This document shows, in pieces, positions 11,005 to 34,682 of a DNA stretch of 43,937 bases. The DNA is from Planctomycetota bacterium (GTDB lineage: Bacteria; Planctomycetota; PUPC01). The notes under the pieces were generated by a model. That model was not told the origin of the DNA, made no database searches, and was given only the letters and a program-made list of their open reading frames with translations. Location: the NCBI GenBank assembly GCA_003559755.1, contig PWKM01000150.1, positions 1 through 43,937 of the forward strand, in the 5' to 3' direction. The translations under genes were made by a program, and so were the position numbers. How positions within the stretch are numbered: the stretch's first letter is position 1; each line of letters opens with the position of its first letter.

Positions 11005-12030
11005 ATGCCCTTGAAGTCCGGATCCCGTGTCATCCCCCTTATTCTGTTCCTGCTTCTCCTGTCTCCGTCGGCGTTCAGTGCGGACGGTGCCGGGGCCGGC
11101 CCGATCATTCGAAGCGTGGAGCCGGTGATTGTCAGTCGGGACGGGGACACCCGTATCACCATCCTCGGTGCGAATTTCGAGACCGGGGCTCCGCCCGACA
11201 TCCGGGTCGAGGTTGGCGGTGAGCCCTGCACCGAGGTCGATGTCAACTGGCAGGGGACGCGGATTCTGGCACTGGTGCCCCCTTCGCGCGCCGGTGGCCC
11301 TGTCCCCGTTCGCGTTATCAATTCCGACGGTCAGTCCGTAACCGTCGAGGACGCGGTTTACTATGAAGACGGGCGGTTCTGGTCGCGGAACTGGTTCCTT
11401 CTGGGAGTCCGCGCCAAGGGGGTCTGGGAGCTGATGCGTCAGGGCGGCCTGATCATGGCGTTCTTGGGTGTGTTGTCGATATTCGCCGTCGCCTGGGCGA
11501 TCCATTGCGCGATTACCATCCGCACCAAGCGCATCATCCCCCGCGAATTCCTCGACCGGTTGAGCGGCCACATCGCCCGGCGCGAGGTCCAGGAGGCAAT
11601 TACCGCCTGCCAGCAGGAAGACGCTGTGTTCAGCCGCGTGGCGCTGGCCGCCCTCCGCAAGGCGGGCGAGCCGCCCCACAAGATTCGCGACGCCAGTCAG
11701 GCGGCCGGCTCCCGCGAGGCCTCACACCTCTTCCAGAAGATCAACTATCTGTCGAACATCGGCGTGATCTCTCCCATGCTGGGCCTGCTGGGCACGGTGA
11801 TGGGGATGCTCATGGCGTTCAGGGCGATGGGCGAGGAAGGCGGCCGGTCGATGGCCCTCGCAGCCGCTATCTACCGGGCGCTGGGGACGACGGCCGTCGG
11901 CCTGACCATCGGGATTCCCGCTATGGCCTGCTTCTACTATTTCCGGGGCAAGCTGCTCCAGGCGACCACCGACATGGAGCAGGTGGCAGAGGAACTGAGC
12001 GATGCCCTTGCCCCGGGTGAGGAGCCGTGA
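11005..12030 (+). CDS. exbB: MotA/TolQ/ExbB proton-channel protein with an N-terminal signal peptide and IPT/TIG domain fusion
   Basis: Signal peptide (LILFLLLLSPSAFSA). IPT/TIG pattern PIIRSVEPVIVSRDGDTRITILGANF...VEVGGEPCTEV...ILALVP...VPVRVINSDGQS. Then the ExbB core (GGLIMAFLGVLSIFAVAWAI; ISPMLGLLGTVMGMLMAF; ALGTTAVGLTIGIPAMACFYYFRGKL). All in one uninterrupted ORF. Confidence 0.85.
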   Translation: MPLKSGSRVIPLILFLLLLSPSAFSADGAGAGPIIRSVEPVIVSRDGDTRITILGANFETGAPPDIRVEVGGEPCTEVDVNWQGTRILALVPPSRAGGPVPVRVINSDGQSVTVEDAVYYEDGRFWSRNWFLLGVRAKGVWELMRQGGLIMAFLGVLSIFAVAWAIHCAITIRTKRIIPREFLDRLSGHIARREVQEAITACQQEDAVFSRVALAALRKAGEPPHKIRDASQAAGSREASHLFQKINYLSNIGVISPMLGLLGTVMGMLMAFRAMGEEGGRSMALAAAIYRALGTTAVGLTIGIPAMACFYYFRGKLLQATTDMEQVAEELSDALAPGEEP

Positions 12031-12458
12031 TGAACTTCAGGCAGGTCTTCGAGGAGCGGCAGGAATCGTTTCAGCTCGCTCCGATGATCGACATCGTGTT
12101 CCTCCTGCTGATCTTTTTCATCCTCAGCGGCGTGCGGGCACAGGAGGCGGAACTGCCGATGGACCTGCCCGGTGCATCCGCCTCGGTCGAACGGCGTCAC
12201 GAGCCGGAGGAAGTGGTGGTCAATGTGGCCCGGGACGGTACGCTGGTCGTCGATAACGCGGTGGTAACTGTTGACGACCTCCAGAAGAAGCTGAACATTT
12301 TGCACCGGTCGGTCACCCGCCCGGTATCTGTTGTGGTACGGGCACACCCGAGGGCCGAGCACCAATCGGTGCTCAACGTCCTGAACGCCTGTGCCGCCGC
12401 CGGCATCACCAAAGTGTCATTTGTGACGAGAGATGAGCGAACCAGGCAGCCCGGTTAA
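12027..12458 (+). CDS. exbD: ExbD/TolR biopolymer transport protein
   Basis: QLAPMIDIVFLLLIFFIL TM carrying the conserved Asp, plus a periplasmic domain (VVVNVARDGTLVVDNAVV...VVVRAHPRAEHQSVLNVLNACAAAGI). The likely ATG at 12030 overlaps the exbB TGA by 1 nt (TGATG). Confidence 0.9.
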   Translation: MMNFRQVFEERQESFQLAPMIDIVFLLLIFFILSGVRAQEAELPMDLPGASASVERRHEPEEVVVNVARDGTLVVDNAVVTVDDLQKKLNILHRSVTRPVSVVVRAHPRAEHQSVLNVLNACAAAGITKVSFVTRDERTRQPG

Positions 12459-12474
12459 CCGAAAACGTGGTCCG

Positions 12475-15036
12475 ATGGCACTCCTGCTCGCAGGCGTTGC
12501 GGCAGCATGCCTGATCTTCACCGCGGCCGCCCCGGCCGACAACGCGGCCGGCGACGCGGACATGCAGTGGGAGTTCGCCAACCGGCTTCTCCAACTCCAG
12601 TCCTATTCGACCGCCGCCCCCCAGTTCCGCAAGTTCCTGGAAGAATATCCCGAAGACCCCCGCCGCGAGGAAGCACGCTATCAACTCGCCATGTGCTACT
12701 ACGTAATGGGGGAAGACGAGCCCGACAACTACGAACGGGCATTGGCCGAGCTGGTGACACTCCGCATGGAGTTCCCGAACGGCAAGCGGTTGAACGACAG
12801 CTTATTCCGGTCAGGGCACATCAGATATCTCACGAGCGACGCAGAGGGGGCGATCGACGACCTGTCGACCCTGCTCGAGCAGGACGGGGTGGCCGCCGAA
12901 CTTGCCGTTCGAGCTCATCACTTCCTCGGTCGGGCACGCTATGATCTGGGCCAGCACAGGGCGGCCATCGAACATTTGAACCGAGTGGCCGAGGCACCGG
13001 AAGAGACCCCGCTTCGCCGGTACGCGTTGATCGTTCTTGCCAATGCCCACACCAGGAAGAGCCAGTTCGAGCAGGCGGCGAATACCATCGATACGCTCCT
13101 TGCCGACCATCCCGACCTTGCCGAGGACGAGGACCTGCTGATCAAGCTGGCCGACGCCCGCCTCGCCGTCGAGCAGTACGATCGGGCCCTGGCCACGTAC
13201 CAGCGGATCGACGACGAGAGCCCGTATCGGTTCCGCGCCGCACTCGGCATCGCCCGATCATACCTGGGGCTGGACAGAAACGCCGAGGCGATGCAGGCCG
13301 CCCGAGCGTTGCTCGATGCGTATGAGCCGACGCCTGAAACCGAAGGGATGAACATCCTCGAGCAGTGCTCGTACATCATCGGCGTCGTGCACTTCAAGCG
13401 GGAAGAATGGGCCGAGGCCGCCGCTGCATTCGAAACAATGCTGGACGCGCTCAAACAGGGCGGGATGGCGGAGGACGCCGCCTACCGGCTGTGCTGGTCC
13501 TACTATCACCTGGGCGAGGAACGGGCCCGGAACCTGGTTGCCGCCAGCGCCGCTTTCCGGCGGATGTTCCCGGCCAGCGACTACATCGACGAGGTCGTCT
13601 TCCTGGCCGGCGAGGGCCACCGGGCACTGGGCGACTTCCAACAGGCGATCTCCTATTACGAACGAATCGAGGAGCACGACCCCAACTACCACGACGCCCT
13701 CTATCGAATCGCCTACTCCTATCACAGGGCGGGCCGGACCGAGCGGGCCGCCAGGGCGTACGATGCGTTTGTCGAGGCACAGAAAGAGCACCGCCGGGCC
13801 CAGGACGCCCTGTACGAGGCCGCCGCACTCTACCAGGGACTCGAACGGTATGAACTCGCGGCCGAACGCTATCATCGGTTCATCGAAAAGGCCCCACGCG
13901 GCCCCGAACAGGCCGAGGCGATGTATCAGCAAGGCGTCTGCTACGCCAGGATGGGACGCTTCGACCGGATGGACGAAGCCCTCACCGGGTATGTCGAGAG
14001 ATACCCCGACGGCGAACACATCGGCTCCGTTCACTATTGGCTGGCTCGACATCACCGGATACAGGCCGACACGCACTCCAACGACGGCGAGATCGACGCC
14101 GCCGTCGCCGCCTACCGACGGGCCGAGCAGAGCTTCCAGCGGGCCCTCGAACACGACCCGCCGGAAGACAAGACCATTCGGCGCTCCATCGCCGAATTGC
14201 GATACCGGCTGGGCGAGACGCTGAATCGCGGGGCAACCGAGGCGGCCGAGGCAGCGGAACAGGCCGACGACGCCGATACAAGGGCGGCTCTGGAGGAAAA
14301 GAGGGACCGGCTGGCCCGGGAAGCCGCCGACACGTTCGGCAAATCCGCTCGCGACTTCCTCGACCTCGCCAGAGAGCATCCCGAACTGATCGGTTCGGAG
14401 GACATCTACTTCTGGGTGGGAAGCTGGTTCCGGCGGCACGAAGAACCCGAGTCCGCCATCGAGGCATTTCTGGCGTTCCGCGAACACCGCCCGGAATCGG
14501 AGAACCTGGACCGGGCGCTCTACCAACTGATCGACCTGCACGGCTCACTCGAACCGGCCAACCACGAGGCGGTGATCCAATACGCCGATGAACTGATCGA
14601 GAAGCGCCCGCAGAGCGAGCTGGTGCTTCGCGGCAGGTTCGACAAGGCCGAGGCCCTGTTCGCCCTGCGGAGATACGATGAGGCCCGGCCGCTATACCGC
14701 GAGGTGTCGCGGGAAGGCGGGGGCGTACTGAGAATCGCATCGGACCTCAAACTCGGCCATATCCACCTCGCCAAAGAGGAATACAGCGAGGCCGTGGGCC
14801 AGTTTGCCCGCGTTGGGCTGCTGTATCAGCACGACACATTTACCCCCGAGGCGCTCTACTTCGCCGGGCGGGCGCGAGCCCGGGCGGGCGGTCCACGCGA
14901 TATCCAGGAAGCGGTCAACTTCTGGCAGCAGTTGGCGAGGAACTATCCCGCTTCGCAATGGACGGCCCGGATGAGAGACGACCTCGAGCCCCTCGGTTAT
15001 CACGTGGCCGAAAATGGAACGATCGAGAAGAAGTGA
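12475..15036 (+). CDS. Secreted tetratricopeptide-repeat (TPR) protein, about 850 aa
   Basis: Signal peptide MALLLAGVAAACLIFTAAAPA, then Ala/Tyr/Leu/Glu-rich 34-residue repeat patterns throughout (e.g. AEAMYQQGVCYARMGRFDRMDEAL). The ORF track starts at 12433 but ATG 12475 avoids overlapping exbD. Confidence 0.8.
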   Translation: MALLLAGVAAACLIFTAAAPADNAAGDADMQWEFANRLLQLQSYSTAAPQFRKFLEEYPEDPRREEARYQLAMCYYVMGEDEPDNYERALAELVTLRMEFPNGKRLNDSLFRSGHIRYLTSDAEGAIDDLSTLLEQDGVAAELAVRAHHFLGRARYDLGQHRAAIEHLNRVAEAPEETPLRRYALIVLANAHTRKSQFEQAANTIDTLLADHPDLAEDEDLLIKLADARLAVEQYDRALATYQRIDDESPYRFRAALGIARSYLGLDRNAEAMQAARALLDAYEPTPETEGMNILEQCSYIIGVVHFKREEWAEAAAAFETMLDALKQGGMAEDAAYRLCWSYYHLGEERARNLVAASAAFRRMFPASDYIDEVVFLAGEGHRALGDFQQAISYYERIEEHDPNYHDALYRIAYSYHRAGRTERAARAYDAFVEAQKEHRRAQDALYEAAALYQGLERYELAAERYHRFIEKAPRGPEQAEAMYQQGVCYARMGRFDRMDEALTGYVERYPDGEHIGSVHYWLARHHRIQADTHSNDGEIDAAVAAYRRAEQSFQRALEHDPPEDKTIRRSIAELRYRLGETLNRGATEAAEAAEQADDADTRAALEEKRDRLAREAADTFGKSARDFLDLAREHPELIGSEDIYFWVGSWFRRHEEPESAIEAFLAFREHRPESENLDRALYQLIDLHGSLEPANHEAVIQYADELIEKRPQSELVLRGRFDKAEALFALRRYDEARPLYREVSREGGGVLRIASDLKLGHIHLAKEEYSEAVGQFARVGLLYQHDTFTPEALYFAGRARARAGGPRDIQEAVNFWQQLARNYPASQWTARMRDDLEPLGYHVAENGTIEKK

Positions 15037-15061: not shown

Positions 15062-16807
15062 ATGCTGCTGCAACGCCCGCCGAGCCGCCCGCGTACCCGC
15101 TCGAAATCGTGGCTCGGCCTGCCGCTCATCATATCGATCTTCTTCCACGTCCTGCTCCTGGCGTCCGTCGAAGGACTTCACCTGTTAGAGATTCTGCCAC
15201 CGGCACCCGACGCGGCGGAGGCGCGGACTGTCGAGGTGTCCACCGCCGTAGCAGACCCAAGCAGGCCGGAACCCATCGGCCCGCCCGAGCCCACGGAGAG
15301 CATCTCGCTGCTGCCCGAGACGCCCGAACTCACCCCCGAACTGTTCCCGAGAACTCGGCCACGCGGCCCACAACGGCCCGAACCGGACCGCAAGCCGATC
15401 ACCCGCTACCCCGAAGAGGAACTCCCGGTCATCGCTCTGCCCGAACTTTCGGACCGAACCCGCCTGCTCCTCCGCGACGGCGAACTCGATATCGTGGACC
15501 CCGGCCGGGGGATCGAGGTTTACGAGCCGAGCGAGCGGCGCATTGAGGAGACGCCGCCCGTGCAAATCAAGGCGGAACCCCGGCTCCAGGCCGATACCGA
15601 TGTGCTGGCAGGAGCCATCCGCCCGACCCAGCCCCGCCGGGCCGCGACGAGCCCCGAGCCACCCACCGCGACCACACCCGAGCGCACCCACCGGCTGGAC
15701 CCGCCGCGAATCGAGCCCGCCACCGATCTCAGCCCCGGAATCGAACAGCTCTTCGCCCGCGACTTTGACCCCGTCGAGGCGGAGCCGCTGCCCCTGAACG
15801 TCCAGATCGACGTGTACGCCGAGCCGGAGAACGATGACCGCTTCTTCCGCCTGACCATCACCGAAAGCGACGACCTGCAGTTGCCCGTTCTCCAGAAGAA
15901 CATCCTGTTCGTCGTCGATATCTCGGCGAGCGTCCGGCAACACATGCTCCGGGCCATCCAGTCGGCGGTCCGCGACAAGGCGGCGGAGGGGTTCAACGAG
16001 GGGGATCGATTCAACATGGTACGGTTCAGCGAGCTCACCTTCAAGACGTTCGCCGGCTTCGTACCCGCGACCGCCGAGAACATCCGCCGGGCGGCCCGCG
16101 TCATCCGCAAAGAGTCGGGACAGGTCCGCACCGACGTTTATCAGGCACTGGTATCGGTTGTCGGGGACCTGCCGAGCGAGGGGGAGGACGCCCACCAGCC
16201 CACCCACATCTACCTCATCAGCGACGGCGACGCCACCACCGGCGTCCGCGACCTGCGCCGCATCGTCACCGACCTGGGCGATGTGACCCGGCCCAACCAC
16301 AGCATCTCGGCCCTCATCCCGGGGACCGAGCACGGCGATCGCTACCTGCTGGACCTGCTTACCTACCGGAACCGCGGGATGTTCGCCCACGCACGCAACA
16401 CCGACGACGTGGGCAGGAAGCTCGGCGAGCTCCTCCGCCGATTCCGCTACCCCATCCTCGTGGATATCCGAGCACGATTCGGCAGCTTCCGGGAGGCAAG
16501 AGTCTATCCCGAGCAACTGCCCGACCTCTACCGAGGTGAACCCATCGTCGTCCACGGCCGGTGCCGGCCGGGCGACACCATCGCTCTGGGAATTATCGGT
16601 CGGACTGCCGAGGGGCCTCGCCAGTTCGTCTATTCGCACCGACTGCCCGAGGTGTTGACCAACGACCCGACCATCGCACGCGGCTGGGCACGCGGCAAGA
16701 TTCACCACATCGCCGCTCTGATCGCCATCGGGGACGATCAGCCCGAATATCGGGAAGAGATCGACCGGCTGAGCGAACGCTACGACCTGGAATCGCCGTT
16801 CAAATAA
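15062..16807 (+). CDS. TonB/TolA-type signal-anchor plus Pro-rich rod fused to a von Willebrand factor A (vWA) domain
   Basis: TM LGLPLIISIFFHVLLLASV with an S-x3-H motif. About 200 aa Pro/Glu-rich linker. vWA domain with MIDAS residues (VVDISAS ... RTDVYQAL ... LISDGDATTG) and DRFNMVRF, typical of inter-alpha-trypsin-like vWA. The ORF track starts at 15014; ATG 15062 is the likelier start. Confidence 0.8.
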   Translation: MLLQRPPSRPRTRSKSWLGLPLIISIFFHVLLLASVEGLHLLEILPPAPDAAEARTVEVSTAVADPSRPEPIGPPEPTESISLLPETPELTPELFPRTRPRGPQRPEPDRKPITRYPEEELPVIALPELSDRTRLLLRDGELDIVDPGRGIEVYEPSERRIEETPPVQIKAEPRLQADTDVLAGAIRPTQPRRAATSPEPPTATTPERTHRLDPPRIEPATDLSPGIEQLFARDFDPVEAEPLPLNVQIDVYAEPENDDRFFRLTITESDDLQLPVLQKNILFVVDISASVRQHMLRAIQSAVRDKAAEGFNEGDRFNMVRFSELTFKTFAGFVPATAENIRRAARVIRKESGQVRTDVYQALVSVVGDLPSEGEDAHQPTHIYLISDGDATTGVRDLRRIVTDLGDVTRPNHSISALIPGTEHGDRYLLDLLTYRNRGMFAHARNTDDVGRKLGELLRRFRYPILVDIRARFGSFREARVYPEQLPDLYRGEPIVVHGRCRPGDTIALGIIGRTAEGPRQFVYSHRLPEVLTNDPTIARGWARGKIHHIAALIAIGDDQPEYREEIDRLSERYDLESPFK

Positions 16808-16824: not shown

Positions 16825-17370
16825 ATGAAGCGAAAGTGGTCGGTCCTGTTGCTGACGGTCGTACCCGGTCTCGGCCACATTTACGCCGGCCGCCAGTGGC
16901 GGGGGCTCCTTCTCTTCGGCCTGTTCGCCATCGCGATCAACGGCTATGTCGCCGGCACCGAGATGACACGGTCGGAGAACCGGACTATCCGCGAACGGGG
17001 CCGGCAGGTCCGTGTGGCGTGTACCGTCGTGGCGGTCGGGGTGTGGATATTCGCCCTGGTTGACATCGCACGCCTGTCGAAGCAGTTCGAATCGAAGCCG
17101 CGTCGCGAGCGGAAGGACTACCATTTCAAGCGCGGCCTGCACCACTACCTCGCCGGAACATTCGAGAGCGCCCGGGGCGAGTTCCTCACCGTGCTGAAGC
17201 TGGACTCGATGGACGCCGACGCCCGCTACTACCTGGGGATGACCCACCAGGCGCTGGGCAACAAACGCCGGGCGGCAAGGGCGTTCAAACGATGCCTGTC
17301 CGCGGACACCGAGAAAAAATGGAACTGGGAAGCCAAAGCCCAACTGAAGAAAGCCCGGAAAACCGGATAA
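16825..17370 (+). CDS. Small membrane protein with a C-terminal TPR motif
   Basis: ATG 16825 preceded by GGGGAGAA. Two TM helices (WSVLLLTVVPGLGHIYAG...LLLFGLFAIAINGYVAG; VACTVVAVGVWIFALVDIA), then a TPR-like segment (GLHHYLAGTFESARGEFLTVLKLDSMDADARYYLGMTHQALGNKRRAARAFKRCL). Confidence 0.7.
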   Translation: MKRKWSVLLLTVVPGLGHIYAGRQWRGLLLFGLFAIAINGYVAGTEMTRSENRTIRERGRQVRVACTVVAVGVWIFALVDIARLSKQFESKPRRERKDYHFKRGLHHYLAGTFESARGEFLTVLKLDSMDADARYYLGMTHQALGNKRRAARAFKRCLSADTEKKWNWEAKAQLKKARKTG

Positions 17371-24044: not shown

Positions 24045-24075
24045 GGGTCTGCCTGCGGGCAGGCCCTTTTCTATT
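24045..24075 (+). terminator. Rho-independent terminator after the zinc-ribbon gene
   Basis: GGGTCTGCC-TGCG-GGCAGGCCC forms a 9-bp stem with one G-U pair, followed by TTTTCTATT. It sits between convergent genes. Confidence 0.6.
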
Positions 24076-25738
24076 CGGTATCCGGTTCCGGCGGCCGCGT
24101 GAGGAGGCGGGCGTCCGACCATCCGAGTTCGTTGCAGAGATCGACGACGCGCACCACCCATCGGTAGAGTGTTGCCGGCTCGGGCTGGATGGTGACCTGG
24201 ACATCGTCGGCGGTTCGTCGCAGGCCCGCGATGTATGTGAGGCGCTCGCGGAGCCAGATCAGGTCCCCGGTCTCGGAGGGATCACTTTCCGACAGGGTGA
24301 CGGTCACGGGCGGGATTTGGGCGGGGTGGCCGTCGCTGACGCCGATGTGGATATGTATCCGTTCGATGCGTGCCGGCCTCTCGACGTCGCGTCTGGCGAG
24401 CGGACCGCGGTTCCAGTCCAGGCGCAGGGCCATGTGATCGCGTGTTCTCACCTCGAGGGGTTCATGCGTCGCTCCCTCGATCACTTTCGTCTCGGCCGGT
24501 TCTGCTTCCTGGATGGCGTGGAACACTTCGGCCAGTTGCAGTGCGGTCGTATCCTCGTCGATGATGACGGAGAATCCCTTGTCCGAATCGCCCTCTTGCC
24601 AGAGGGTTGCCAGTTCTTGTGCGGTGACCCGTGCGCCGTCGATCTGGATACGGTTTTCCTGGAGCTCGGCGGTCAGACCGACCTCGAGGTCTTCCTTGAG
24701 TCGGACGGTTTCGAGCGATTCGACCTGTATGCCGCTCCGGTGGATGGCATCGAACGCCCGGTATATTGCGTCGGGCGGCGCCCCGTGGTCGATTGTGATG
24801 CGGAGCGAGTCTTCGTCCTCTTTGTCCCGAATATCTCGAAGTGTGTCGAGCAGGAACATCGGTTCGCGCTCGTTGAGCAGCACGCGCCCGCCCCGGGTGA
24901 TGTCCATGTGGATGACCTGGCCCCCGAACTCGTTTTTGGGGGGCGGTTCCGGCAGTTCGGCGGGTTTGATGATGAGGGTGACCTCGGTGCCTACCGGCGG
25001 GACGACGTCGGTGTTGACGACGAACGCCCGGTCGTCGGCCCCGATTTCAAGCGGGAGGTCAAGCACGGACATCGGGTCACGGAACACGGTGACCACGGAT
25101 AGCTCGCGGTTCGCCCAGTAGATTTCCCTTCCGGTCTGGGGCTCCTGGACAAATCGGCTGCCCAGGAATACGTAATGGGTTCGGCACATCAGCCGTTGGT
25201 CGATCTGGTTCCAGACCAGGTCTTCCGAGCGGTACGTCTTGGGGCCGTCCTCGGTCTCGAACCGGACGTAGATGTTCACCGGGTCCCCGGAGGGGGCATG
25301 CTCGGGGTCCCCCTGGAATCGCGGCCCGGCGTCGGCCGGTGCGGGCTTCAGCCCGAGGGCAAGCAGGAACATATGGAGGTCGCTCGGCTGGAGGTCGAGC
25401 GCGATGATGCTCTCGTATTCTTTGCCGCCGCGTGCACAGGCGAGCAGTTCGATGGGGCCTTCATCCAGGCAGATTTCCCCGTCGACCTCGATGCGTCTCT
25501 CCTCGGGGTAAAGCCGCGCCCCGCGCCTGCTGATGACCTTCCGGTCGGCGATTTCGGGCAGGGCTTCGGGGTCCTCGATCTCTTCCCGCTCGACGATGTC
25601 ATCCGCTTCGGGCGCCTCGTCGGCGTTCGCGGAGCCGGCCCAGATGGCCGGGGCCAGGGCGGCAAGAATGAGAGCAACGGCAAGGCGGGGTCCCATCCGC
25701 AAGAATGTCAACTTTCGGGCTGAATTTAACGTTCTCAT
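24071..25738 (-). CDS. Secreted protein: YdjY-like N-terminal domain followed by three ExbD-periplasmic-domain-like repeats
   Basis: Signal peptide (LAVALILAALAPAIWAGSANA). YdjY-like segment (EVDGEICLDEGPIELLACARGGKEYESIIALDLQPSDLHMFLLALGL). Three segments fit the ExbD C-domain pattern (e.g. IHMDITRGGRVLLNE...LRITIDHGAPPDAIYRAFDAIHRSGIQ; VQVTIQPEPATLYRWVVRVVDLCNELGW). It is the last gene of the TPR-exbBDD operon. Confidence 0.7.
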   Translation of the reverse strand: MRTLNSARKLTFLRMGPRLAVALILAALAPAIWAGSANADEAPEADDIVEREEIEDPEALPEIADRKVISRRGARLYPEERRIEVDGEICLDEGPIELLACARGGKEYESIIALDLQPSDLHMFLLALGLKPAPADAGPRFQGDPEHAPSGDPVNIYVRFETEDGPKTYRSEDLVWNQIDQRLMCRTHYVFLGSRFVQEPQTGREIYWANRELSVVTVFRDPMSVLDLPLEIGADDRAFVVNTDVVPPVGTEVTLIIKPAELPEPPPKNEFGGQVIHMDITRGGRVLLNEREPMFLLDTLRDIRDKEDEDSLRITIDHGAPPDAIYRAFDAIHRSGIQVESLETVRLKEDLEVGLTAELQENRIQIDGARVTAQELATLWQEGDSDKGFSVIIDEDTTALQLAEVFHAIQEAEPAETKVIEGATHEPLEVRTRDHMALRLDWNRGPLARRDVERPARIERIHIHIGVSDGHPAQIPPVTVTLSESDPSETGDLIWLRERLTYIAGLRRTADDVQVTIQPEPATLYRWVVRVVDLCNELGWSDARLLTRPPEPDTE

Positions 25739-25806
25739 ATGCGTGCCTGTCCGCTTCGGCCGGCCATTCGTGCTAATCAATGCTGCTGTTCGCCGGTTCG
25801 TGTTTC

Positions 25807-26325
25807 TCAGCCGTCTGGCGGGTCACGTGGGAGCGACCTTCTGGAGGCGGCAAAATTGACCTCCTGGAACCCTTCGCCGCGACATATGGCGACGGCCTTG
25901 ATGACCCATCTGTACTTGACGGCGGGTTCGACCTCGAGTATGACCGGTACATTCTCCCGGACCTGCGGGTCCTGGGCGTGCTTGGCGATTTCCTGGTGGA
26001 GCGTTCTGAGTCCACCGAGCACGGTCCGATCGACATCGATTTGGATGCCGTCGTCCGGCGCGCGGGTCACCTCGTATGTCGGCTCCGCCTCGGGGTCCCC
26101 TCCCCGTGTGCGGATCGTCACCCTGATCTCCGGTTCGATCTCGGCCACGGTCAGTTGGTCGGGCGGGCCGGCCTCCTGGGGCAGGTAGGCCTCGAGCTCG
26201 CCCTCGGGGACGCGGAAGCGGGTGACCACGAAGAAGAAGATCAACAACTGGAACACGATGTCGATCATCGGGGTCATCTGGAGCTTTGAGTCTTCGCCCG
26301 CATTCATGCCTCGCAGGAACTTCAT
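25807..26325 (-). CDS. exbD: ExbD/TolR biopolymer transport protein (paralogue 2)
   Basis: LQMTPMIDIVFQLLIFFFVV TM with the conserved Asp, plus a periplasmic domain (VPVILEVEPAVKYRWVIKAVAICRGEGF). Confidence 0.9.
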   Translation of the reverse strand: MKFLRGMNAGEDSKLQMTPMIDIVFQLLIFFFVVTRFRVPEGELEAYLPQEAGPPDQLTVAEIEPEIRVTIRTRGGDPEAEPTYEVTRAPDDGIQIDVDRTVLGGLRTLHQEIAKHAQDPQVRENVPVILEVEPAVKYRWVIKAVAICRGEGFQEVNFAASRRSLPRDPPDG

Positions 26326-26329
26326 ATCT

Positions 26330-26836
26330 TTATCCCTCTGCCAATCGAACGCTGAACGACATTTTATAGAATCGCATCCGGGCCGCCCGTTCCATCACGT
26401 CCTGAACGGTCCGCCATTCGACGTTTCTGTCCGCCTGGACCAGGATGGGCTGTTCGGATGGTTCGTCCCCCAGCCCCCTGTACTGCCGTTCGACGCGGAA
26501 GTACCTGAGGACCTGGTCCCTGGCCTCGGCCCCCGACTCTCTGAGGTCGTACATCTGCTGTACGCGGCCCTGGATATAGACGGTGTCCATCATCCTGACC
26601 TGGCCGTCTGCAGGGTCAACGCGCTCGCGGGGGATGATGCTGATGATAATCCTGTCGGGGATATTCGTCTCTTCCCGTGCCTGGGCGGCGTAGGGGAGTT
26701 CGAGTCCCTCGATGTGGTCATAGGAGATGATTTCCGAGACCACCAGGAAGAAGATGAGGAGCAGGAACACCACGTCGATCATCGGCGTGAGGTTCATCTC
26801 CAGCTCTTCTGGATGAAATCGCTTGGTGACGTGCAT
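26330..26836 (-). CDS. exbD: ExbD/TolR biopolymer transport protein (paralogue 1)
   Basis: MNLTPMIDVVFLLLIFFLVV TM with the conserved Asp. Its stop lies 4 nt from the start of the next exbD. Confidence 0.9.
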   Translation of the reverse strand: MHVTKRFHPEELEMNLTPMIDVVFLLLIFFLVVSEIISYDHIEGLELPYAAQAREETNIPDRIIISIIPRERVDPADGQVRMMDTVYIQGRVQQMYDLRESGAEARDQVLRYFRVERQYRGLGDEPSEQPILVQADRNVEWRTVQDVMERAARMRFYKMSFSVRLAEG

Positions 26837-26842
26837 GGTGTG

Positions 26843-27610
26843 CTACTCCACAGGTCGGAATCGGGCCATCAGTTCGCCGCTGATGGCGCCCACTTCCAGA
26901 ACGATCTTCTGGACGCGGTTTTTGAAGAACTGGTAGATGCACATAACCGGGATGGCGACGATGAGGCCGAGGAACGTGGTGACCAGTGCGAGCTGGATGT
27001 TTTGTGCGAGGTCGGCCGGTTTCGGGGGGACGTCCGGGTTTGCGATGGCTGCGAACGCACGGATCATGCCGAGCACGGTCCCCAGCAGCCCGAGCATGGG
27101 CGAGATGTTGGCGATGAGTGAGAGGTAGCTGATCTTCTGTTGCAGATCGACTGCGGCCTCTTCTCCCGCCTCGCTCATTGCCTCTTCCATCTGCTTATAA
27201 CCGGCGTTCACCCGGGAGAGGCCGGCTGCGATCACGTTACTGAAGAAGGTCGGCTGTTCCTCGCAGACCATGATGGCCTCCTCATACTCCTCCTGCTCGA
27301 AGCATTCTTCGACATCGGCGAGCAGTTCCGGCGGCATGATTACGCCGCGCCGGATGGTCAGCCCGTGCTCGATGGCCAGGGCGATGGATATGAGGAACAG
27401 GAAGATGATGATGTAGCCGATCAGCCCACCGGCCTGGATGACCTCCAACACGCTCATCGTCTCGGTTGGGTCTTCCTCCGGCTCGGCCGCGGGCGCCGGC
27501 TCCTCGGCCGCCTCAGCGACCATCACGACCGGGGCGCAGAGAAGCAGAACGGCTATTATCAGGATGATGGCGAATGGCTTCCAGCTTCCGGCCCTCCAAC
27601 AATCAGGCAT
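26843..27610 (-). CDS. exbB: MotA/TolQ/ExbB proton-channel protein with N-terminal signal peptide and acidic Pro-rich linker
   Basis: AAGGAGAG RBS 8 nt before ATG 27610. Core motifs: GGLIGYIIIFLFLISIALAIEHG, ISPMLGLLGTVLGMIRAF, ALVTTFLGLIVAIPVMCIYQFFKNR. Confidence 0.9.
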   Translation of the reverse strand: MPDCWRAGSWKPFAIILIIAVLLLCAPVVMVAEAAEEPAPAAEPEEDPTETMSVLEVIQAGGLIGYIIIFLFLISIALAIEHGLTIRRGVIMPPELLADVEECFEQEEYEEAIMVCEEQPTFFSNVIAAGLSRVNAGYKQMEEAMSEAGEEAAVDLQQKISYLSLIANISPMLGLLGTVLGMIRAFAAIANPDVPPKPADLAQNIQLALVTTFLGLIVAIPVMCIYQFFKNRVQKIVLEVGAISGELMARFRPVE

Positions 27611-27699
27611 ACCAGATCTCTCCTTAAAACGAGCCACAATTTCGGGGCCGATGGCTTTTTGGCATCGTGCCCCACGAATTCATTATCCGGTCGATCCGC

Positions 27700-28858: not shown

Positions 28859-31800
28859 CTATTGCAGTTTGGTCTTGAGTTCTCTGGCGCGTTCCCGGAC
28901 CTGTTCTTCGTCGGCCCGTTCGATGACCGAATCGATGAACCTGATGAACGTCTCCTGGCCTCCGGCCAGTTCGGGGTCCAGCTCGCGGGCTCTCTCGATG
29001 GCATCCAGAGCACTGCCGTAGTTGTGGCTCTCGATTTCGTCGCGGGCATCGGCCGCCCTGATCCTGACCAGCAAGGCACGCGCCCTGTCCTGTTCCTCGC
29101 CCGGTTCGCTGCGGTTGTAGACCTCCCGGACCACGGATGCCAGCCGGCTGCGAATCTCGGGGCCGCCGAGGGATGGTTCGCCGGCCGCTCGCCGCCGAAT
29201 GACCCGGAGGTTATCGCTGTATCGACCGTCCAGGTTCCAGAGTTCCGCGATGGTTGCGACCACGTCCCACCAGTCTTCGGAATAGGGTGTCAGCCGCCTC
29301 AGAAGTTCGGTGCAATGTTCGAGTGCCTCGTTGAGATAAGCATCGGACCCGGGGGCGAGTTGTTGAGCCGCCTTCGCGAGGTGGAGGCGGGTCGTCGCCC
29401 AGTAGGGCGGAGGGGTTGCGTCTTCATCGTGCTGCAGGCGGCGGTTGTATATTTCGTCGAGCCGGTCGTACTGTTCCTTGAGTTCGATGTATGCTTCCTC
29501 ATACTGGCCGGTGTGGTAGTACGCCGTGCCCAGCAGGATGCGGGCCCTTTCGAGCTGCACCTGTTGGGTCCTTGTGAGGAGCGGGTCGCCCTCGAACCGT
29601 TCGAGGAAGAGTTCCAGGAACGGGAGCCCCTCGTTCAGGCGGTCCTGGCGATGGAATTCGCCGACTGCCCAGTACAGCGTCTCGTAGGGCTGTTCGGGAT
29701 TCCTGTTGATCATCGCGGTCACGATGTCGAGGGCCCGGTTGGCCGACTGGGAAGCGATGTCGCGTTTTTCTTGGATTTGCTCCCGGAGCCCTCTCCGTTC
29801 AGCGGGTTCCTCGGCCTGTTCCGCCTGTGCCTCGAGCTCTTGTGCTTCGCTTCGGGATGTCCGGGCGTTTGCAGCGTGAGCACGGAACCGTGCTTCGTCC
29901 GCCGCTCTCAGCAGCCGCTCTCCCTGGGGCTGTCTCTCCTCGTCCATCTCCAGGACGACCCGTTCCAACTGGGCATAGGCGTCTTCCGCATCGTCCAGGA
30001 GTTCCAGTCGTACCAGCGCCTGTACGCGATAGTAGCTGACGGCCGGATGGTAGACAGCGGCATCGGGGAACCGTCCGACGAAGTTCTCGGTCAGTTCGAG
30101 ATAGGCCTCGTAATCCTCGCGGCCCGGCCAGATATAGATTCGGCTGAGCCCATAGACGGCGGCGGGCATGAGCCGAGCGCGCCGTCGGTTGACGGCGGAA
30201 TAGATCGATTCCTGCTCGGCCCGTTCCATGAACCGCAGAAAATCGGCTTTGGCCTGATCGAGCAAAGAGCTGCTCCGCTGGGGGGCTTCGTTTCGCAACT
30301 GCTGGGCCCAGAGCATCCGTGCCTCGGCGGTCTTCACGATCGCCGCCTCGTAGTAGACCGAGTCCTCGGGGATTTCCGCCAAGCTGGCGACGGCCTCCTC
30401 GAATTCGCTGCTGGCGATGTGTCGGAGGGCGTCCTCGTACATCCGGGGCTCGCCTCCAAACGTCTCGAGGAACCAGTTCCTGACCCATTGGTACAGCAGT
30501 TCGTCGGCTTCGTCCCCGGTCGCGTCCCGCTGCTGCCGGAGCATCAGGCGGGCCAGCCGGCCGTAGGTCTCCTCCTGCTCTCCGCCTTTGCCCGAGGAGA
30601 CGATGTGGCGGTAGACGGTGAATGCCTCGTGGAACATGTTTTCCTGGCGGTAGGCCATTGCCAGGAGTTGGAAGGCCGTTGTGCGTTGTTCGGAGGTAAT
30701 CTGGTCGCCGAACTCCAGAAGCTGCGGGATGAGGCGGATCAGGGCTTCGTTGTCGCGCGCCCGATGTGCTTCGGAGATCTGGCGCATGACGGCTCGCGGC
30801 CCCATGCCGTCGAGTCCATACCGCTGGCGGAGCGAGATGGCCTGCCCTTCCCACTGGGGATGCTGCTCGGAGAGGCGCTCCAGCAGGGTGTTGGCCCGTT
30901 CCTGTGCTTCTTCCGCCCGTTCTTCCCGGCCGCCTTCACGCAGGCGACTGGCGAGCATCAGGATGAGTTCTCCCCGGGCAATCAGGGCCTCCGGCATCTC
31001 GATGCCATCGAGGTACCGGATGGCCTCTTCGATTTTTTCGCTGTCCTGGTTGGCCATGGCCAGTGCCCGGACCGCCTTCGTCCGATGCTCCCACAACCTG
31101 AGCTCGTCGGTGAGCTGCGGAACAGATTCCATTGCGTCCTCGATGAGGAGCAGGTTCATTTCTGCGCTTCGTTGGGCCTGTCTGTAATCTTCGGCGGCGA
31201 GGTATGCCCGGGACAGGGTCAACTGTCCGATGATGGTCTCGCCACGCAGCCCGTATTCAGGGCAGAGGATTTCGAGGTGCTCAATGGTCTTTTGCAGCAG
31301 TTCATTTCGCCGTTCGGTCTCTCTGGGGGGGAGTGCCTGATAGTAGGCGAACCTTGTGCGGTTGAGTTCATAGCCGGCGTTGGCGTGCTTGCCCTGCAGC
31401 TCGCCGAGTATTCTCAGCCACTCTTGCAGTTGGGCTCGGTCGTCCGGTCGTTGTTTCTCGTGTTCTTCCAGCGCCTGGGCCGCCACATCAGTAAGCCGTT
31501 CCAGCCCCTCAATCGCGCGTTCGAAGGCCTGGGACATCCTCTGGAGGAGTTGATCCCGCTGGTCACCGCTGGCCACTGCGGCCCGATTGGCATATTGCTC
31601 GGCCTGGGCGCGCAGGCGGAGAAACTCGGCGACAGTCCCCACTCTTGCCGAAGGGTCCAACTCTTCCAGTTCCGCACTGTACCGATCGACGTATTCCTGG
31701 TGACGGGCGCGTTTGGCATCCGCCTCGGCGCTGGACAGGTGCCCGTGGACGGCGCCGGCAAACTCCCGATGGGCGGCGAGAAGGGCGTTCAGGGCCTTGG

Positions 31801-31987
31801 CCCGCTGGCCCTCGTCTTCAATCTCGTCCAGGCGATTCTCGAGCACCTCGATGCCCAGATCGGGGAAACCGCGCTCGACGAGGCCGGCCCCAAAATCGAT
31901 ATCTTCGTCAAGTGGCGCTGCCGCTGCCGACGACGCCATAAGCCCGGCCAGGAGTAGAGCAGAACTCAATGTGATAACCAATCGCAT
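28859..31987 (-). CDS. Secreted giant TPR-repeat protein (1042 aa)
   Basis: AGGAG RBS. Signal peptide MRLVITLSSALLLAGLMASSAAAAP. Helical-repeat composition rich in Ala/Leu/Glu/Arg/Tyr throughout. GC3-rich codons in this frame, whereas the 1087-aa antisense ORF is Gly/Pro/Arg-rich shadow. Confidence 0.85.
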   Translation of the reverse strand: MRLVITLSSALLLAGLMASSAAAAPLDEDIDFGAGLVERGFPDLGIEVLENRLDEIEDEGQRAKALNALLAAHREFAGAVHGHLSSAEADAKRARHQEYVDRYSAELEELDPSARVGTVAEFLRLRAQAEQYANRAAVASGDQRDQLLQRMSQAFERAIEGLERLTDVAAQALEEHEKQRPDDRAQLQEWLRILGELQGKHANAGYELNRTRFAYYQALPPRETERRNELLQKTIEHLEILCPEYGLRGETIIGQLTLSRAYLAAEDYRQAQRSAEMNLLLIEDAMESVPQLTDELRLWEHRTKAVRALAMANQDSEKIEEAIRYLDGIEMPEALIARGELILMLASRLREGGREERAEEAQERANTLLERLSEQHPQWEGQAISLRQRYGLDGMGPRAVMRQISEAHRARDNEALIRLIPQLLEFGDQITSEQRTTAFQLLAMAYRQENMFHEAFTVYRHIVSSGKGGEQEETYGRLARLMLRQQRDATGDEADELLYQWVRNWFLETFGGEPRMYEDALRHIASSEFEEAVASLAEIPEDSVYYEAAIVKTAEARMLWAQQLRNEAPQRSSSLLDQAKADFLRFMERAEQESIYSAVNRRRARLMPAAVYGLSRIYIWPGREDYEAYLELTENFVGRFPDAAVYHPAVSYYRVQALVRLELLDDAEDAYAQLERVVLEMDEERQPQGERLLRAADEARFRAHAANARTSRSEAQELEAQAEQAEEPAERRGLREQIQEKRDIASQSANRALDIVTAMINRNPEQPYETLYWAVGEFHRQDRLNEGLPFLELFLERFEGDPLLTRTQQVQLERARILLGTAYYHTGQYEEAYIELKEQYDRLDEIYNRRLQHDEDATPPPYWATTRLHLAKAAQQLAPGSDAYLNEALEHCTELLRRLTPYSEDWWDVVATIAELWNLDGRYSDNLRVIRRRAAGEPSLGGPEIRSRLASVVREVYNRSEPGEEQDRARALLVRIRAADARDEIESHNYGSALDAIERARELDPELAGGQETFIRFIDSVIERADEEQVRERARELKTKLQ

Positions 31988-32312
31988 CAGCGAAGCTCCT
32001 GGAATGATGGGAACAATTTCCTTTGTTATTCTAATAAACGAAAGGAAGGGCCAAAAAGTTCACGACCACCGGCAAAATTGCCCAATATCAGCCCGGCGGG
32101 CTTGCAGCCCCGCCCGCGAGCTGACGTTGCGACAACACCAGGTCAGATAGTGAAGCAGACTGACACGACCGGATACTCGTCCGGCCCCGGCCGAACAAAC
32201 GTTCTTGAACTTTGCCCCGGCCCAACTCGGGAGACAGGCATTGGCAAAGGCACTGCACCGCCACACAGCAAACGAACGGGTGACAACATCAATTGGTAGT
32301 AGTATCGGCCGG

Positions 32313-32906
32313 CTACTCTTTCTGTTCAATAATATGTGCGGTGACCAGGACGATCAGGTTATTTCGTGAGATGATCCTGCGACGGCTCCTGAAGAGGCCG
32401 CCAATGAGCGGGAGGTCGCCGAGAATGGGAAGTTTGGCATGCCCCTCAGCGTCGACCGCCTCGGCAAGCCCACCGATGAGCAGCGTCCCGCCGTCGGGCA
32501 CCGATACGGTGGTCATCACCTGCCGGGTGCTGATGGTGGGCAGTTGGACGAACCGCTCGAGAGCTACCGCCAGGCGTTCGTCATCATCATCGTCAACATC
32601 AAGCAAATCGAGGTCCTCACGGGTCGCGAAACCAAAGCGATCTATTTGCTCCGCTACATTGACCTGGGGCCTGAGCTCGAGTGTGATGTATCGGCGGTCG
32701 GCGCTGACGAACGGTTGGACCTCGAGGGTGATGCCGCTGTTGACCTGCCCGATCTCGGGCTGCTCGTCGGCGTCATAACTTCTGACGTAGCTCGTTCTCG
32801 TGGCGATGGTGACGAACGCCCGCTGGGTATTGAAGCAGGTGACGCGCGGTGCGGTCAGGATGTTGCCTCTCTTTTCCTTTCGGACGGCGTTGATGATTGC
32901 CCGAAC
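32313..32906 (-). CDS. Secretin (GspD/PilQ family) C-terminal secretin domain; in-frame continuation of the upstream ORF after a TAG codon
   Basis: My own translation from directly after TAG (32909-32907) reads VRAIINAVRKEKRGNILTAPRVTCFNTQRAFVTIAT...VQLPTISTRQVMTTVSVPDGGTLLIGGL...KLPILGDLPLIGGLFRSRRRIISRNNLIVLVTAHII. These are canonical secretin motifs. No convincing independent start or RBS. Confidence 0.8.
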   Translation of the reverse strand, partial: VRAIINAVRKEKRGNILTAPRVTCFNTQRAFVTIATRTSYVRSYDADEQPEIGQVNSGITLEVQPFVSADRRYITLELRPQVNVAEQIDRFGFATREDLDLLDVDDDDDERLAVALERFVQLPTISTRQVMTTVSVPDGGTLLIGGLAEAVDAEGHAKLPILGDLPLIGGLFRSRRRIISRNNLIVLVTAHIIEQKE

Positions 32907-34682
32907 CTACCAGCTATTGAGGAACCCGGTCATCAGCCGCATCCCGGCCTCTTCCCCGACTTGCTGGTGGCCCATTCTGGCGAAGGGGCCGGACTCGAGA
33001 GGCATGTCAATGCCGAGGCCGAATTGGGTCCGAATGCCCGGCCTGTAAAACCCGTATCGGCCGTCCGGGCCCACCCCTGTCCACCGGATACTCAACTCGT
33101 CGAGAAAGTCCTCTTCTACCTCGATAAACCGCGCCATGATGGCGACCTGGACGGCCCGCGCCCGTCGGAAGCTGGCGAGCAGTTCCCGAATTTCTTCCTG
33201 GACCTCGGGCGAGTGGGTGACAACCAGCCGGCCGGTGCGGTATGCAATGCGGTTCTGGCCGACCCCGCCCTCGATGTCCCAAGTGCCGGGTGCGATGGCT
33301 TCGCGGATGAAGGACATCCAGCGGTCCCCCTCGATCTCGTGCTCCATCCTCTTGACGTCATCCTGCCCCGAACTGGAACTGAACCAACTGCGGTCGTCCT
33401 TCCGCCGCTGGAACTCGGGCGTCCCGATGCCGCCGTCGGACATCTCGGTGTTGAAGTCCCTCGGCTGGATGGTCAGGTCGGAGATGTCGTGCCACATGGT
33501 GACCGGCCGCTCGGCCAAGCCTTCCTCGTTGGAGATGAACACGGCGCCATCCCGGATACGCCAGTCGAGGTTCGCGTTTTGCAACCGAACAAGGAAATTG
33601 AGCACGCTCTCCATCGGTGCGTTCCGCATCCGGAGGCTGACCGGCTCGACCGTGGGAAGGATGGTCGGGTCGACGATAATGTTGAGATCGCCGGCCGCTC
33701 GCATGTAGTCGATGGCTTCCTCGAACGGACGCCCGTCGAACTGGACGCTGATCCGGGTGGCCTTGAGTCGGGCCTGGATCTCCTTCTGGGTTCGTTCGTC
33801 GTCGTCTGACACACGCGGCTGCCGAGTGATCAGGCCGGACGTCTCGGGAGCCGGTCGGCGCAGCCGACTGCTGACCGGTTCCGGTCGGATGGTGTCGTAA
33901 CCCATCTCGCTCAGGTCGGTGGACATCATCTCGCCGACCATCCGGTCGGCCCGTGAGATCATCCCTTGAAGCCCCGGCTCCACGTCGATTCGTTCCTCGG
34001 GAACGGGGGGGGACCTGTCGGGCGCGGGGGCAGTGGGGACGGCCGTCTCGAGGGTGGGCTCGTCGCCCGACCGGCTCAGCAGGCCTTCCATCTGGAGCGC
34101 CCTTGCCCGCCTCAGGCCGGCCTCGGCCTGGTTGACAAGCTCCGGGAACCGCTCGTTGATGGGCTGGAGGACGTTAATGGCCTGGTCGAACCTGGCGGTC
34201 GATTCGTTGTAATCGCCGTCCGCGATGCCGGCCTGTCCGGCGTTGATGAGTTCCTCGGCCCTTGTTCTCAGGGCTTCCGGGCTGTTCAAGCCGGCGGTGT
34301 CTGCTCCCGCCTGACTGGTCTCCTGAGCCGGGGGCTGGGGCAGTGAGGACATTTCTGCCTCGCCGGGTGTCTCCGGCTGCAGAACGGGTTCGGATGAGGG
34401 AGCCGCAACCGCCTCATCGCCCGCTCTTTCTGTCGCCTGTTCGAGGCCCTGGCGGGCGGCATCCAGGTCGGGGTCGCAGTTGAGTGCGGCTCGGAAGTGT
34501 TCGACCGCCTGGGCATATTCCCCTGCGGCGAGCAGTTCCTGCCCCCTTTCCATGAACCCGATGGCGACGCTCCTTAACGGGCTGACATCGGCCGCCGCGG
34601 TGCCTGGCACGGACATGGTCGCACAAACAAGTAAGCCAGCGAGCAGGATTTTCGTAATCAAGTCGAGCCCTCTTTCTTCCAT
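32907..34682 (-). CDS. Secretin N-terminal part (signal peptide, TPR-like head, N-domains, start of the secretin domain), ending at an in-frame TAG
   Basis: GGGAGACC RBS before ATG 34682. Signal peptide ITKILLAGLLVCATMSVPGTAAA. TPR-like AAGEYAQAVEHFRAALNCDPDLDAARQGL. N0/STN-like ISVQFDGRPFEEAIDYMRAAGDLNIIVD...VSLRMRNAPMESVLNFLV. Ring-building VQVAIMARFIEVEEDFLDEL. Confidence 0.8.
   Translation of the reverse strand: MEERGLDLITKILLAGLLVCATMSVPGTAAADVSPLRSVAIGFMERGQELLAAGEYAQAVEHFRAALNCDPDLDAARQGLEQATERAGDEAVAAPSSEPVLQPETPGEAEMSSLPQPPAQETSQAGADTAGLNSPEALRTRAEELINAGQAGIADGDYNESTARFDQAINVLQPINERFPELVNQAEAGLRRARALQMEGLLSRSGDEPTLETAVPTAPAPDRSPPVPEERIDVEPGLQGMISRADRMVGEMMSTDLSEMGYDTIRPEPVSSRLRRPAPETSGLITRQPRVSDDDERTQKEIQARLKATRISVQFDGRPFEEAIDYMRAAGDLNIIVDPTILPTVEPVSLRMRNAPMESVLNFLVRLQNANLDWRIRDGAVFISNEEGLAERPVTMWHDISDLTIQPRDFNTEMSDGGIGTPEFQRRKDDRSWFSSSSGQDDVKRMEHEIEGDRWMSFIREAIAPGTWDIEGGVGQNRIAYRTGRLVVTHSPEVQEEIRELLASFRRARAVQVAIMARFIEVEEDFLDELSIRWTGVGPDGRYGFYRPGIRTQFGLGIDMPLESGPFARMGHQQVGEEAGMRLMTGFLNSW

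Follow-up and report, generated by a model that had tools for sequence, protein, structure and literature searches.

Force transducers built on the von Willebrand factor A (vWA) domain, the “vWA force transducers”, were predicted in 2025 from a seed protein of Tichowtungia aerotolerans (Kiritimatiellota), in the course of examining species without recognisable TonB or TolA (Mol Biol Evol 2025;42:msaf138; PMC12204202). As described there, proteins of this class have a transmembrane helix (TMH) that bears the SHLS motif, a linker that is disordered and includes a motor box, a domain II of ~100 residues and a vWA C-terminal domain. They are encoded with tolQ-like, tolR-like and tetratricopeptide repeat (TPR) genes in bacteria of the Planctomycetes-Verrucomicrobia-Chlamydiae (PVC) group, including Planctomycetes, and the class is reported from Proteobacteria, Planctomycetes, Verrucomicrobia, Bacteroidetes and Rhodothermaeota. 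AlphaFold3 (AF3) complex models in the same paper place the conserved His on the motor. Here, we analyse a gene at positions 15062-16807 of a 43,937-nucleotide stretch of DNA from a Planctomycetota bacterium (contig PWKM01000150.1; the whole stretch is hereafter called the window). By the features described there, the gene is, as its sequence indicates, a further member of the predicted vWA force-transducer class, and its product is probably the subunit that transduces force in a trans-envelope machine of the Tol/Ton type, driven by the proton motive force (PMF). A first-pass annotation of the same DNA had taken the architecture to be undescribed, which fails after June 2025 because PMC12204202 gives the same anatomy and synteny; the concept has been in print since then, and the window gene adds a member and detail to it. 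What is observed, namely the anatomy of the domains, the conservation of residues and the synteny, is presented in the next two sections.

Anatomy of the vWA protein

The ATG at 15062 has a Shine-Dalgarno-like GAGGG 4 nucleotides upstream, and translation from another ATG, at 15014, would mean an overlap with the gene upstream. The product is identical to a protein-database entry (P0001), and the landmarks originally listed for the 581-residue open reading frame (the TMH with SIFFH, the Pro/Glu stretch, DISAS and SDGD) were all located in the translation. A Pfam scan (E<=0.01) returned VWA models and no TonB_C, TolA or VIT. An AlphaFold2 (AF2) monomer model, built on a 45-sequence alignment, has a TMH at residues 19-38, disorder over 39-228 and a confident C-terminal module at ~240-575. 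The parts of the protein, including a metal ion-dependent adhesion site (MIDAS) and a module resembling inter-alpha-trypsin inhibitor heavy chains (ITIH), are as follows.

15062-16807, + strand: vWA force-transducer candidate, 581 aa (anchor, linker and ITIH-type vWA head)
15116-15175, + strand: N-in TMH, aa 19-38, with S25-x3-H29 at nt 15134-15148 (AF2 helix; motif conservation)
15176-15781, + strand: Pro/Glu-rich disordered periplasmic linker, aa 39-240 (composition; AF2 confidence)
15224-15250, + strand: candidate motor box or D-box, aa 55-63, R-TVEVSTAV (short, alternating-hydrophobic, strand-like segment)
15404-15487, + strand: conserved linker motif, aa 115-142, RYPEEELP...LSxRxxxxxRDGEL (alignment of the Planctomycetota clade)
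15782-16804, + strand: ITIH-heavy-chain-like module, aa 241-581 (AF2, Foldseek, Pfam)
15917-15931, + strand: MIDAS residues D286, S288 and S290 (DISAS, 286-290; alignment)
16130-16132, + strand: MIDAS residue T357 (TDVY; alignment)
16223-16225, + strand: MIDAS residue D388 (SDGD at 387; alignment)

The TMH, LGLPLIISIFFHVLLLASV, is preceded by a basic stretch, RPRTRSKSW, and holds S25-I-F-F-H29. In a 24-sequence N-terminal alignment drawn from several phyla, S25 and H29 are the sole columns conserved at a level of at least 90%, and both are kept to the same degree (at least 90%) in ~20 close orthologues, all from Planctomycetota-type metagenome assemblies. A wider sample was formed by the 134 relatives that are full length with an N-terminal TMH among the best 150 of a profile search. 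Here, the Ser column holds Ser in 96 sequences (72%), Ala in 27 and Thr in 9, the His column holds His in 102 (76%), Tyr in 20 and other hydrophobic residues in 12, and Ser and His occur together in 91. When the anchor was aligned with that of E. coli TolA using hhalign, S18/H22 fell in register on S25/H29 (E 6.6e-5, probability 64%); S16/H20 of TonB were also in register in a profile alignment, more weakly than TolA (E 0.003), and NCBIfam TonB gave a very weak match to aa 15-112 (E 0.0087). The E. coli TolA and TonB query sequences had been checked against PDB chains 9k49_H and 9ddo_F. The S-x3-H likeness to TonB and TolA pointed out in the first-pass annotation is thereby confirmed: the register holds with both anchors, better with TolA, and the motif, rather than being lost in orthologues, is kept across phyla, with Ser and His present in most relatives.

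In TonB, the D-box comprises residues 43-54 with a core at S46-M49 (PMC10907165), and is the strand captured by the ExbD dimer (PMC10907165, PMC12905483). Its core lies 26-29 residues past H20, and the most frequent position in the vWA family has the same spacing: a strand-like motif was found at H+16 to H+42 in 98 of the 134 relatives, with a sharp mode at H+26 (65 cases), whereas a control stretch placed further down the linker shows one in just 8 of 134. The motif is typically [RK]-F-x-V-x-L. In the window protein it reads TVEVSTAV (aa 56-63) and begins at H+28, and the box consensus in the protein's own clade, TIETGTVSPEDLE, resembles TonB ISVTMVTPADLE. From the spacing and the strand-like pattern, we infer that this candidate box binds ExbD/TolR.

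Pro accounts for 18.3% of the linker and 5.6% of the remaining sequence, Glu for 12.9% and 6.7%, and the AF2 confidence score (pLDDT) stays below 50 over residues 39-117 and 140-228; composition and predicted disorder agree with the ~200-residue Pro/Glu-rich stretch that had been noted after the TMH. Within it, R115, Y116, E118-P122, S130, R132, R138, G140 and E141 are kept at a level of at least 90% in the Planctomycetota clade, the only clade with a motif of the RYPEEELP type, and AF2 places a weak helix at 131-142 (pLDDT ~55). Distant relatives have another conserved segment at the equivalent place, D-A-x-I-L-E-I...A-R-R-x-V-x-P-S-P. In database proteins P0003 and P0005 and in locus L007 (L007:8001-9977), the motif module is wholly duplicated in tandem. 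A reading of RYPEEELP as the “YP” start of TonB_C was dropped, there being no TonB_C profile match and no such fold. E. coli CpoB binds domain II of TolA and, by this analogy, RYPEEELP...RDGEL is a possible place for a partner to dock, for instance the TPR protein encoded upstream.

The head is modelled with pLDDT mostly 85-97 over residues 240-575 and consists of a beta-hairpin, a Rossmann-type vWA domain, a beta-sandwich and two long C-terminal helices. Pfam VWA_2, VWA and VWA_3 match at aa 280-403 (E 7e-7 to 3e-5). In the PDB, the head's best Foldseek match is inter-alpha-inhibitor heavy chain 1 (6fpy; 347 aligned columns, E 1.5e-20), followed by other vWA proteins, with BatB (3ibs) at rank 44; NCBIfam TIGR03788 matches aa 273-580 with E 6e-35 and 120.8 bits, far short of the 551.65-bit cutoff. 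None of the MIDAS residues varies in 21 orthologues, in 45 sequences including VIT-vWA relatives, or in a 22-sequence cross-phylum alignment. D-x-S-x-S, Thr and Asp make up a complete MIDAS, a predicted metal site. Distant homologues (P0022-P0086) carry a VIT domain (PF08487), and the window protein is without one. The Pfam scan and the AF2 model that had been proposed as checks confirm the vWA fold and the absence of a TonB_C fold, and with them three earlier calls: that the domain is inter-alpha-trypsin-like (ITIH1 being the top structural match and Pfam VWA also matching), that its MIDAS is intact (as seen in all three alignments), and that it stands in place of TonB_C or TolA-III, for which there is no Pfam match and, in the model, no TonB_C-like fold.

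Motor genes, TPR protein and synteny

The vWA gene follows two motor genes and a TPR gene on the same strand, in the order given by the first-pass annotation, and the 25-nt gap between the TPR stop at 15036 and the vWA start was verified. A further small gene lies downstream.

11005-12030, + strand: TolQ/ExbB-like proton-channel subunit, 341 aa, with a signal peptide and a periplasmic N-terminal IPT/TIG domain (Pfam)
12027-12458, + strand: TolR/ExbD-like subunit, 143 aa, the only one in the operon (Pfam ExbD, E 6e-26)
12433-15036, + strand: secreted TPR protein, 867 aa, with CpoB/YbgF-like and BamD-like repeats (NCBIfam, Pfam TPR)
16828-17370, + strand: small membrane protein, 180 aa, DUF6677 plus TPR (Pfam DUF6677, E 6.5e-6; TPR_2, E 2e-7)

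The larger motor subunit matches Pfam MotA_ExbB (E 8e-25) and TIG (E 5e-11); NCBIfam TolQ (E 6.5e-20) beats ExbB (~1e-9), and the best PDB matches are TolQ chains. By these NCBIfam and PDB matches, the vWA-linked motor is closer to TolQ/TolR than to ExbB/ExbD. The earlier label “exbB-exbD” was therefore right about the adjacency of motor genes and wrong about their type, TolQ/TolR scoring better. The transmembrane Asp of the ExbD-like subunit (PMIDIVF) aligns with D25 of E. coli ExbD and is invariant in all orthologous loci, as are the equivalents of the TolQ pore residues T145 and T178; the roles of these motor Asp and Thr residues are taken from PMC12905483.

The IPT/TIG domain of the TolQ-like subunit lies at 11005-11400 of the window and is also seen in L003, L005, L007 and L014 (L014:4941-5975). 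Within this operon, the fusion is a conserved trait of the Planctomycetota clade and limited to it: TIG is absent from the TolQ-like gene in the Nitrospiraceae, Hydrogenedentota, Verrucomicrobia and Lentisphaerae loci, and there is no TIG match among the Pfam annotations of the Kiritimatiellia loci. Judging from the sequence, a TolQ-like pentamer would bear five Ig-like domains on its periplasmic face, near the place where the TolA/TonB helix docks.

The TPR protein matches NCBIfam tol_pal_ybgF in six stretches with 167.8 bits (cutoff 90.1) and BamD with E 3e-33, besides many TPR Pfam models. Its orthologues, ~800-870 aa long, mostly have a Sec-type signal peptide with AxA or similar followed by Q, and the TPR gene lies between exbD and the vWA gene in 13/13 complete modules. 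The DUF6677-TPR gene, found directly 3’ of the vWA gene in L001-L007 and L014 and absent downstream in L008, L011, L013, L016 and L017, is possibly an accessory limited to the Planctomycetota clade.

Synteny was taken from tblastn of the window proteins against the recovered loci and from Pfam-annotated contigs. The full ExbB-ExbD-TPR-vWA order is found in the window and in 12 other loci, from Planctomycetota, Kiritimatiellia, Verrucomicrobiota, Lentisphaerae, Nitrospiraceae and Hydrogenedentota, with genes that are often overlapping or closely spaced. The linkage of orthologues to exbBD, which the first-pass annotation had proposed as a check, thus extends over six lineages, with L010 and L012 as exceptions. 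The loci, with anchor motifs where distant lineages are concerned, are as follows.

L001, L002, L003, L005, L007, L014: Planctomycetota/Brocadiia, full module
L004, L006: sequence ends inside the TPR gene
L008: Nitrospiraceae, full module, anchor SVLLH
L009: Hydrogenedentota, full module, anchor STLAIY with Tyr in place of His
L010: Verrucomicrobiota, anchor SLVAH
L011: Verrucomicrobia, full module, anchor SCALH
L012: Lentisphaerae, anchor SCLVH
L013: Lentisphaerae, full module, anchor SLALH
L016, L017: Kiritimatiellia, full module

Beyond the four genes, neighbours vary by lineage and are housekeeping genes, those in distant lineages including tRNA synthetases, IF3, MgtE, a histidine kinase and creatininase. 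Since the neighbours outside ExbB-ExbD-TPR-vWA are variable, we take the four genes as the functional unit.

The family is large: when 1.84 billion representative proteins were searched exhaustively with a profile, 13,201 relatives appeared at E<=1e-3 and, at E<=1e-30, 1,765 clusters at 50% identity; the best 150 relatives are nearly all 540-620 aa long, consistent with the same architecture. P0298 and P0324, both from Kiritimatiellia, reach ~1e-125 against the family profile, and each is encoded in an operon of the same four genes. A second broad protein search returned members from Kiritimatiellia, Verrucomicrobia and Lentisphaerae, and no protein named Tichowtungia.

Two other clusters were seen in the window. 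A second motor cluster at 24071-27637 (- strand) is separate from the vWA operon, and no TonB/TolA-like gene adjoins it. Comparable clusters lie upstream of the vWA operon in L014 (ExbB, three ExbD and YdjY) and, in related form, in L007 (ExbB and two ExbD). The stretch 28859-39754 (- strand) contains a PilM-like gene (38012-39754) and, after it, four to five large open reading frames of 460-1042 aa with almost no Pfam matches (one weak TPR match only), perhaps a divergent cluster related to pili or secretion. The genes of the second motor cluster are as follows.

26843-27637, - strand: MotA_ExbB gene (Pfam)
26330-26836 and 25807-26325, - strand: two ExbD genes (Pfam)
24071-25780, - strand: secreted 569-aa protein, of which only the last ~45 residues match the ExbD profile

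Proposed mechanism and alternative readings

Motor coupling, capture of the box by ExbD, contact with the TPR protein, the kind of ligand and the role in the cell are inferred, as follows. The TolQ-like pentamer and the TolR-like dimer (11005-12458) would form a proton-driven 5:2 motor. The vWA protein would dock on the rim of this motor through its single TMH, with S25 and H29 used as in TolA and TonB, and the periplasmic TolR/ExbD dimer would capture the strand box ~26-28 residues past the His. The Pro/Glu-rich linker, about 190-200 residues, would span the periplasm and carry at its distal end the ITIH-type vWA head, replacing the strand-augmenting TolA-III or TonB_C. There, at the peptidoglycan or the outer membrane, the MIDAS of the head would bind an acidic residue of a partner via a divalent cation, and rotation of the motor would pull on this metal-mediated contact. 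The secreted, co-conserved CpoB-like TPR protein is most probably a periplasmic partner or regulator, and may dock on the linker motif. The earlier proposal that PMF-driven work is delivered to a metal-dependent domain is in line with conservation and synteny, the coupling itself being the part deduced from them; the same coupling was predicted independently, with AF3 complex models (PMC12204202).

Several observations count against this force-transducer reading. Firstly, homology to TonB/TolA by sequence rests on ~23 residues. The full anchor motif is Ser-x3-His-x6-Leu-x3-Ser (PMC12905483), and only its Ser/His half is conserved here, the Leu position being V36 and the last Ser position H40. 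When a profile of the N-terminal 90 residues was searched against all PDB sequences, it retrieved no TonB or TolA chain and only light-harvesting and MotB TMHs at chance level (E 0.13-3), so that the claim of anchor homology rests on the pairwise profile alignment and the motif register. Secondly, the anchor His is replaced by Tyr in 15% and by hydrophobic residues in 9% of the 134 relatives, and the Tyr-variant locus L009 keeps its motor genes, which suggests that the His may not be strictly required. To our knowledge, H20 of TonB tolerates Asn only. Thirdly, the place of the Glu conserved in E. coli TolQ (E173) and ExbB (E176) is taken by R, K, Q or M in the vWA-linked motor family, and the AF2 monomer leaves the candidate motor box disordered; in a model of the monomer, such disorder is as expected for a motif that folds on binding. 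Fourthly, L010 has the TPR gene with no ExbB/ExbD gene detected beside it, and L012 has a vWA gene without neighbouring motor genes. Finally, according to PMC12204202, no phenotypes of deletions had been reported for vWA force transducers.

Two of these observations touch on side groups of the family. The Tyr clade includes L009:7236-9005 and, among its representatives, P0098, P0105, P0109, P0115 and P0117. The L012 gene (L012:7227-8963, Lentisphaerae) encodes a normal S-x3-H anchor and, having no TPR or motor neighbours, is flanked by genes for a DUF1015 protein and Mfd; its product may use a motor encoded elsewhere in the genome.

The vWA protein could also be a passively anchored periplasmic scaffold or adhesin like BatA/BatB or YfbK, with the helix as a signal anchor, a static vWA-TPR complex, and motor genes that serve another client or share regulation. 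Motor-free pairs of a TMH-anchored vWA protein and a TPR protein do exist, BatB is among the structural matches, and L012, L010 (with no ExbB/ExbD found upstream of its TPR gene) and the loss of the anchor His in 24% of the 134 relatives all fit such a scaffold. However, if the helix were a plain anchor, Ser and His would not stay a constant distance apart across phyla as the remainder of the helix diverges, nor would a scaffold preserve a strand motif with the D-box spacing of TonB. The four-gene order kept in six lineages, with genes often overlapping or close, also tells against it, and the window is without the MoxR and DUF58 genes typical of Bat operons. We consider this reading unlikely.

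The genes around the module bear on two further readings. In the distant lineages, there is no conserved outer-membrane or lipoprotein partner gene beside the module and no candidate for a ligand. A TonB-like energiser of import, whose MIDAS would engage an outer-membrane channel or plug and open it for uptake, for instance of polymers, would agree with an anchor, box and Pro-rich linker on the TonB plan and with a family found in species without recognisable TonB/TolA (PMC12204202). Yet no gene for a TonB-dependent receptor or outer-membrane channel is conserved beside the module, and the motor and TPR protein resemble TolQ, TolR and CpoB rather than Ton components, which makes import quite improbable. 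A machine for surface adhesion or gliding, in which the motor would move or expose a vWA adhesin, has its parallel in the Agl-Glt system of Myxococcus, where TolQR-like AglRQS, TonB-like Glt proteins and the vWA lipoprotein CglB cooperate (PMC9946355). vWA domains are classical adhesion modules, and gliding is raised as a possibility in PMC12204202. On the other hand, a ~190-residue linker ties the vWA head to the inner membrane, the conserved module holds no component for outer-membrane translocation, many of the lineages that bear it are not known to glide, and the flanking genes are housekeeping and lineage-variable; we regard gliding or adhesion as very unlikely.

For the force-transducing machine, the favoured cellular role, by analogy, is Tol-like envelope maintenance or tethering of the outer membrane, because the motor and the TPR protein are Tol-like and because, according to the supplement of PMC12204202, which cites Witwinowski et al., there is no Pal in Planctomycetes. 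More tentatively, the module may represent a third widespread class of proton-driven force transduction beside Ton and Tol, one that pulls on a MIDAS metal contact and would replace Tol-Pal tethering and constriction in Planctomycetota and other PVC bacteria, with a giant CpoB-like TPR protein as coordinator and, in Planctomycetota, an IPT/TIG ring on the stator; we put this forward as possible and hold it with some doubt.

If the force-transducer reading is true, 5:2 proton motors can drive work through an integrin-like, metal-dependent distal head, and a wider set of outer-envelope processes can be powered from the inner membrane. The phyla in which this large family occurs include several with a poorly understood envelope biology, among them Planctomycetota, Kiritimatiellia, Verrucomicrobiota and Lentisphaerae. 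Ready-made mutational tests are offered by the constant distance from His to box, the His-to-Tyr variants and the invariant MIDAS, the Tyr variants being a natural test of the role of the anchor His.

Comparison with known systems

Several known families were ruled out. TonB or TolA proper is excluded by the lack of any match to PF03544 or PF06519 at E<=0.01 and by the finding of only an ITIH-like module after the linker; membership of the VIT-vWA/ITIH family by the lack of a PF08487 match in the window protein; a Bat operon by the absence of MoxR and DUF58 genes in Pfam scans of the window and by the adjacent motor genes; and an anti-phage defence system with a MotAB-like motor, such as Zorya, by 0/5 operon proteins matching PADLOC (E<=0.001). 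The TPH-vWA proteins of PMC12204202 are, like the window protein, tethered to the inner membrane and encoded beside a TolQ-like gene; they are described there as pairing with TolQ alone and as having a TolR-like trans-pore helix with a conserved Asp, no SHLS residues and no tolR neighbour. This family was ruled out because the TMH of the window protein has S-x3-H and no Asp, and because an exbD gene is part of the operon.

With the ITIH proteins and bacterial VIT-vWA proteins (e.g. the TIGR03788 marine sortase target), the window protein has in common the C-terminal ~340 aa and the MIDAS residues, but it lacks VIT (PF08487) and has an inner-membrane anchor and linker instead of a secreted N-terminus. 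With TonB-ExbB-ExbD, it shares the S-x3-H anchor, a box at H+26 to H+28, a Pro-rich linker and motor genes of the 5:2 type with essential Asp and Thr. It differs in having no TonB_C and no linked TonB-dependent transporter, and its binding of a target would use the MIDAS metal rather than beta-strand augmentation. The likeness to E. coli Tol extends to a motor that best matches TolQ/TolR, to the register with S18-x3-H22 of TolA, to a strand box at similar spacing and to a CpoB-like TPR protein, here ~3 times the length of CpoB. Unlike the Tol system, the window module has no TolA-III, tolB or pal, the TolQ E173 equivalent is not kept, and the linker is Pro/Glu-rich rather than helical.

The vWA force transducers, as described in PMC12204202, come closest. 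They and the window protein have in common an SHLS-type TMH, of which the window protein holds only the Ser and His, a disordered Pro-rich linker with a strand-like box, a vWA C-terminal domain in place of TolA-III/TonB_C, tolQ-like, tolR-like and TPR neighbours, and an occurrence in Planctomycetes and the PVC group. In comparison with the PVC loci of that paper, the window operon has a single tolR/exbD rather than a heterologous pair, and its order is motor, then TPR, then vWA; the TolQ-like subunit of the Planctomycetota clade carries an IPT/TIG domain, which the passages of PMC12204202 considered here do not mention. To the published description, the present analysis adds figures for Ser/His conservation across a very large family, the TonB-like spacing of the box and a Tyr clade in which motor genes are kept. 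It further shows that the 340-aa head is ITIH-like as a whole, and describes three clade-specific features, namely a stator fused to TIG, a TolR present in one copy and a linker motif that is duplicated in some orthologues.

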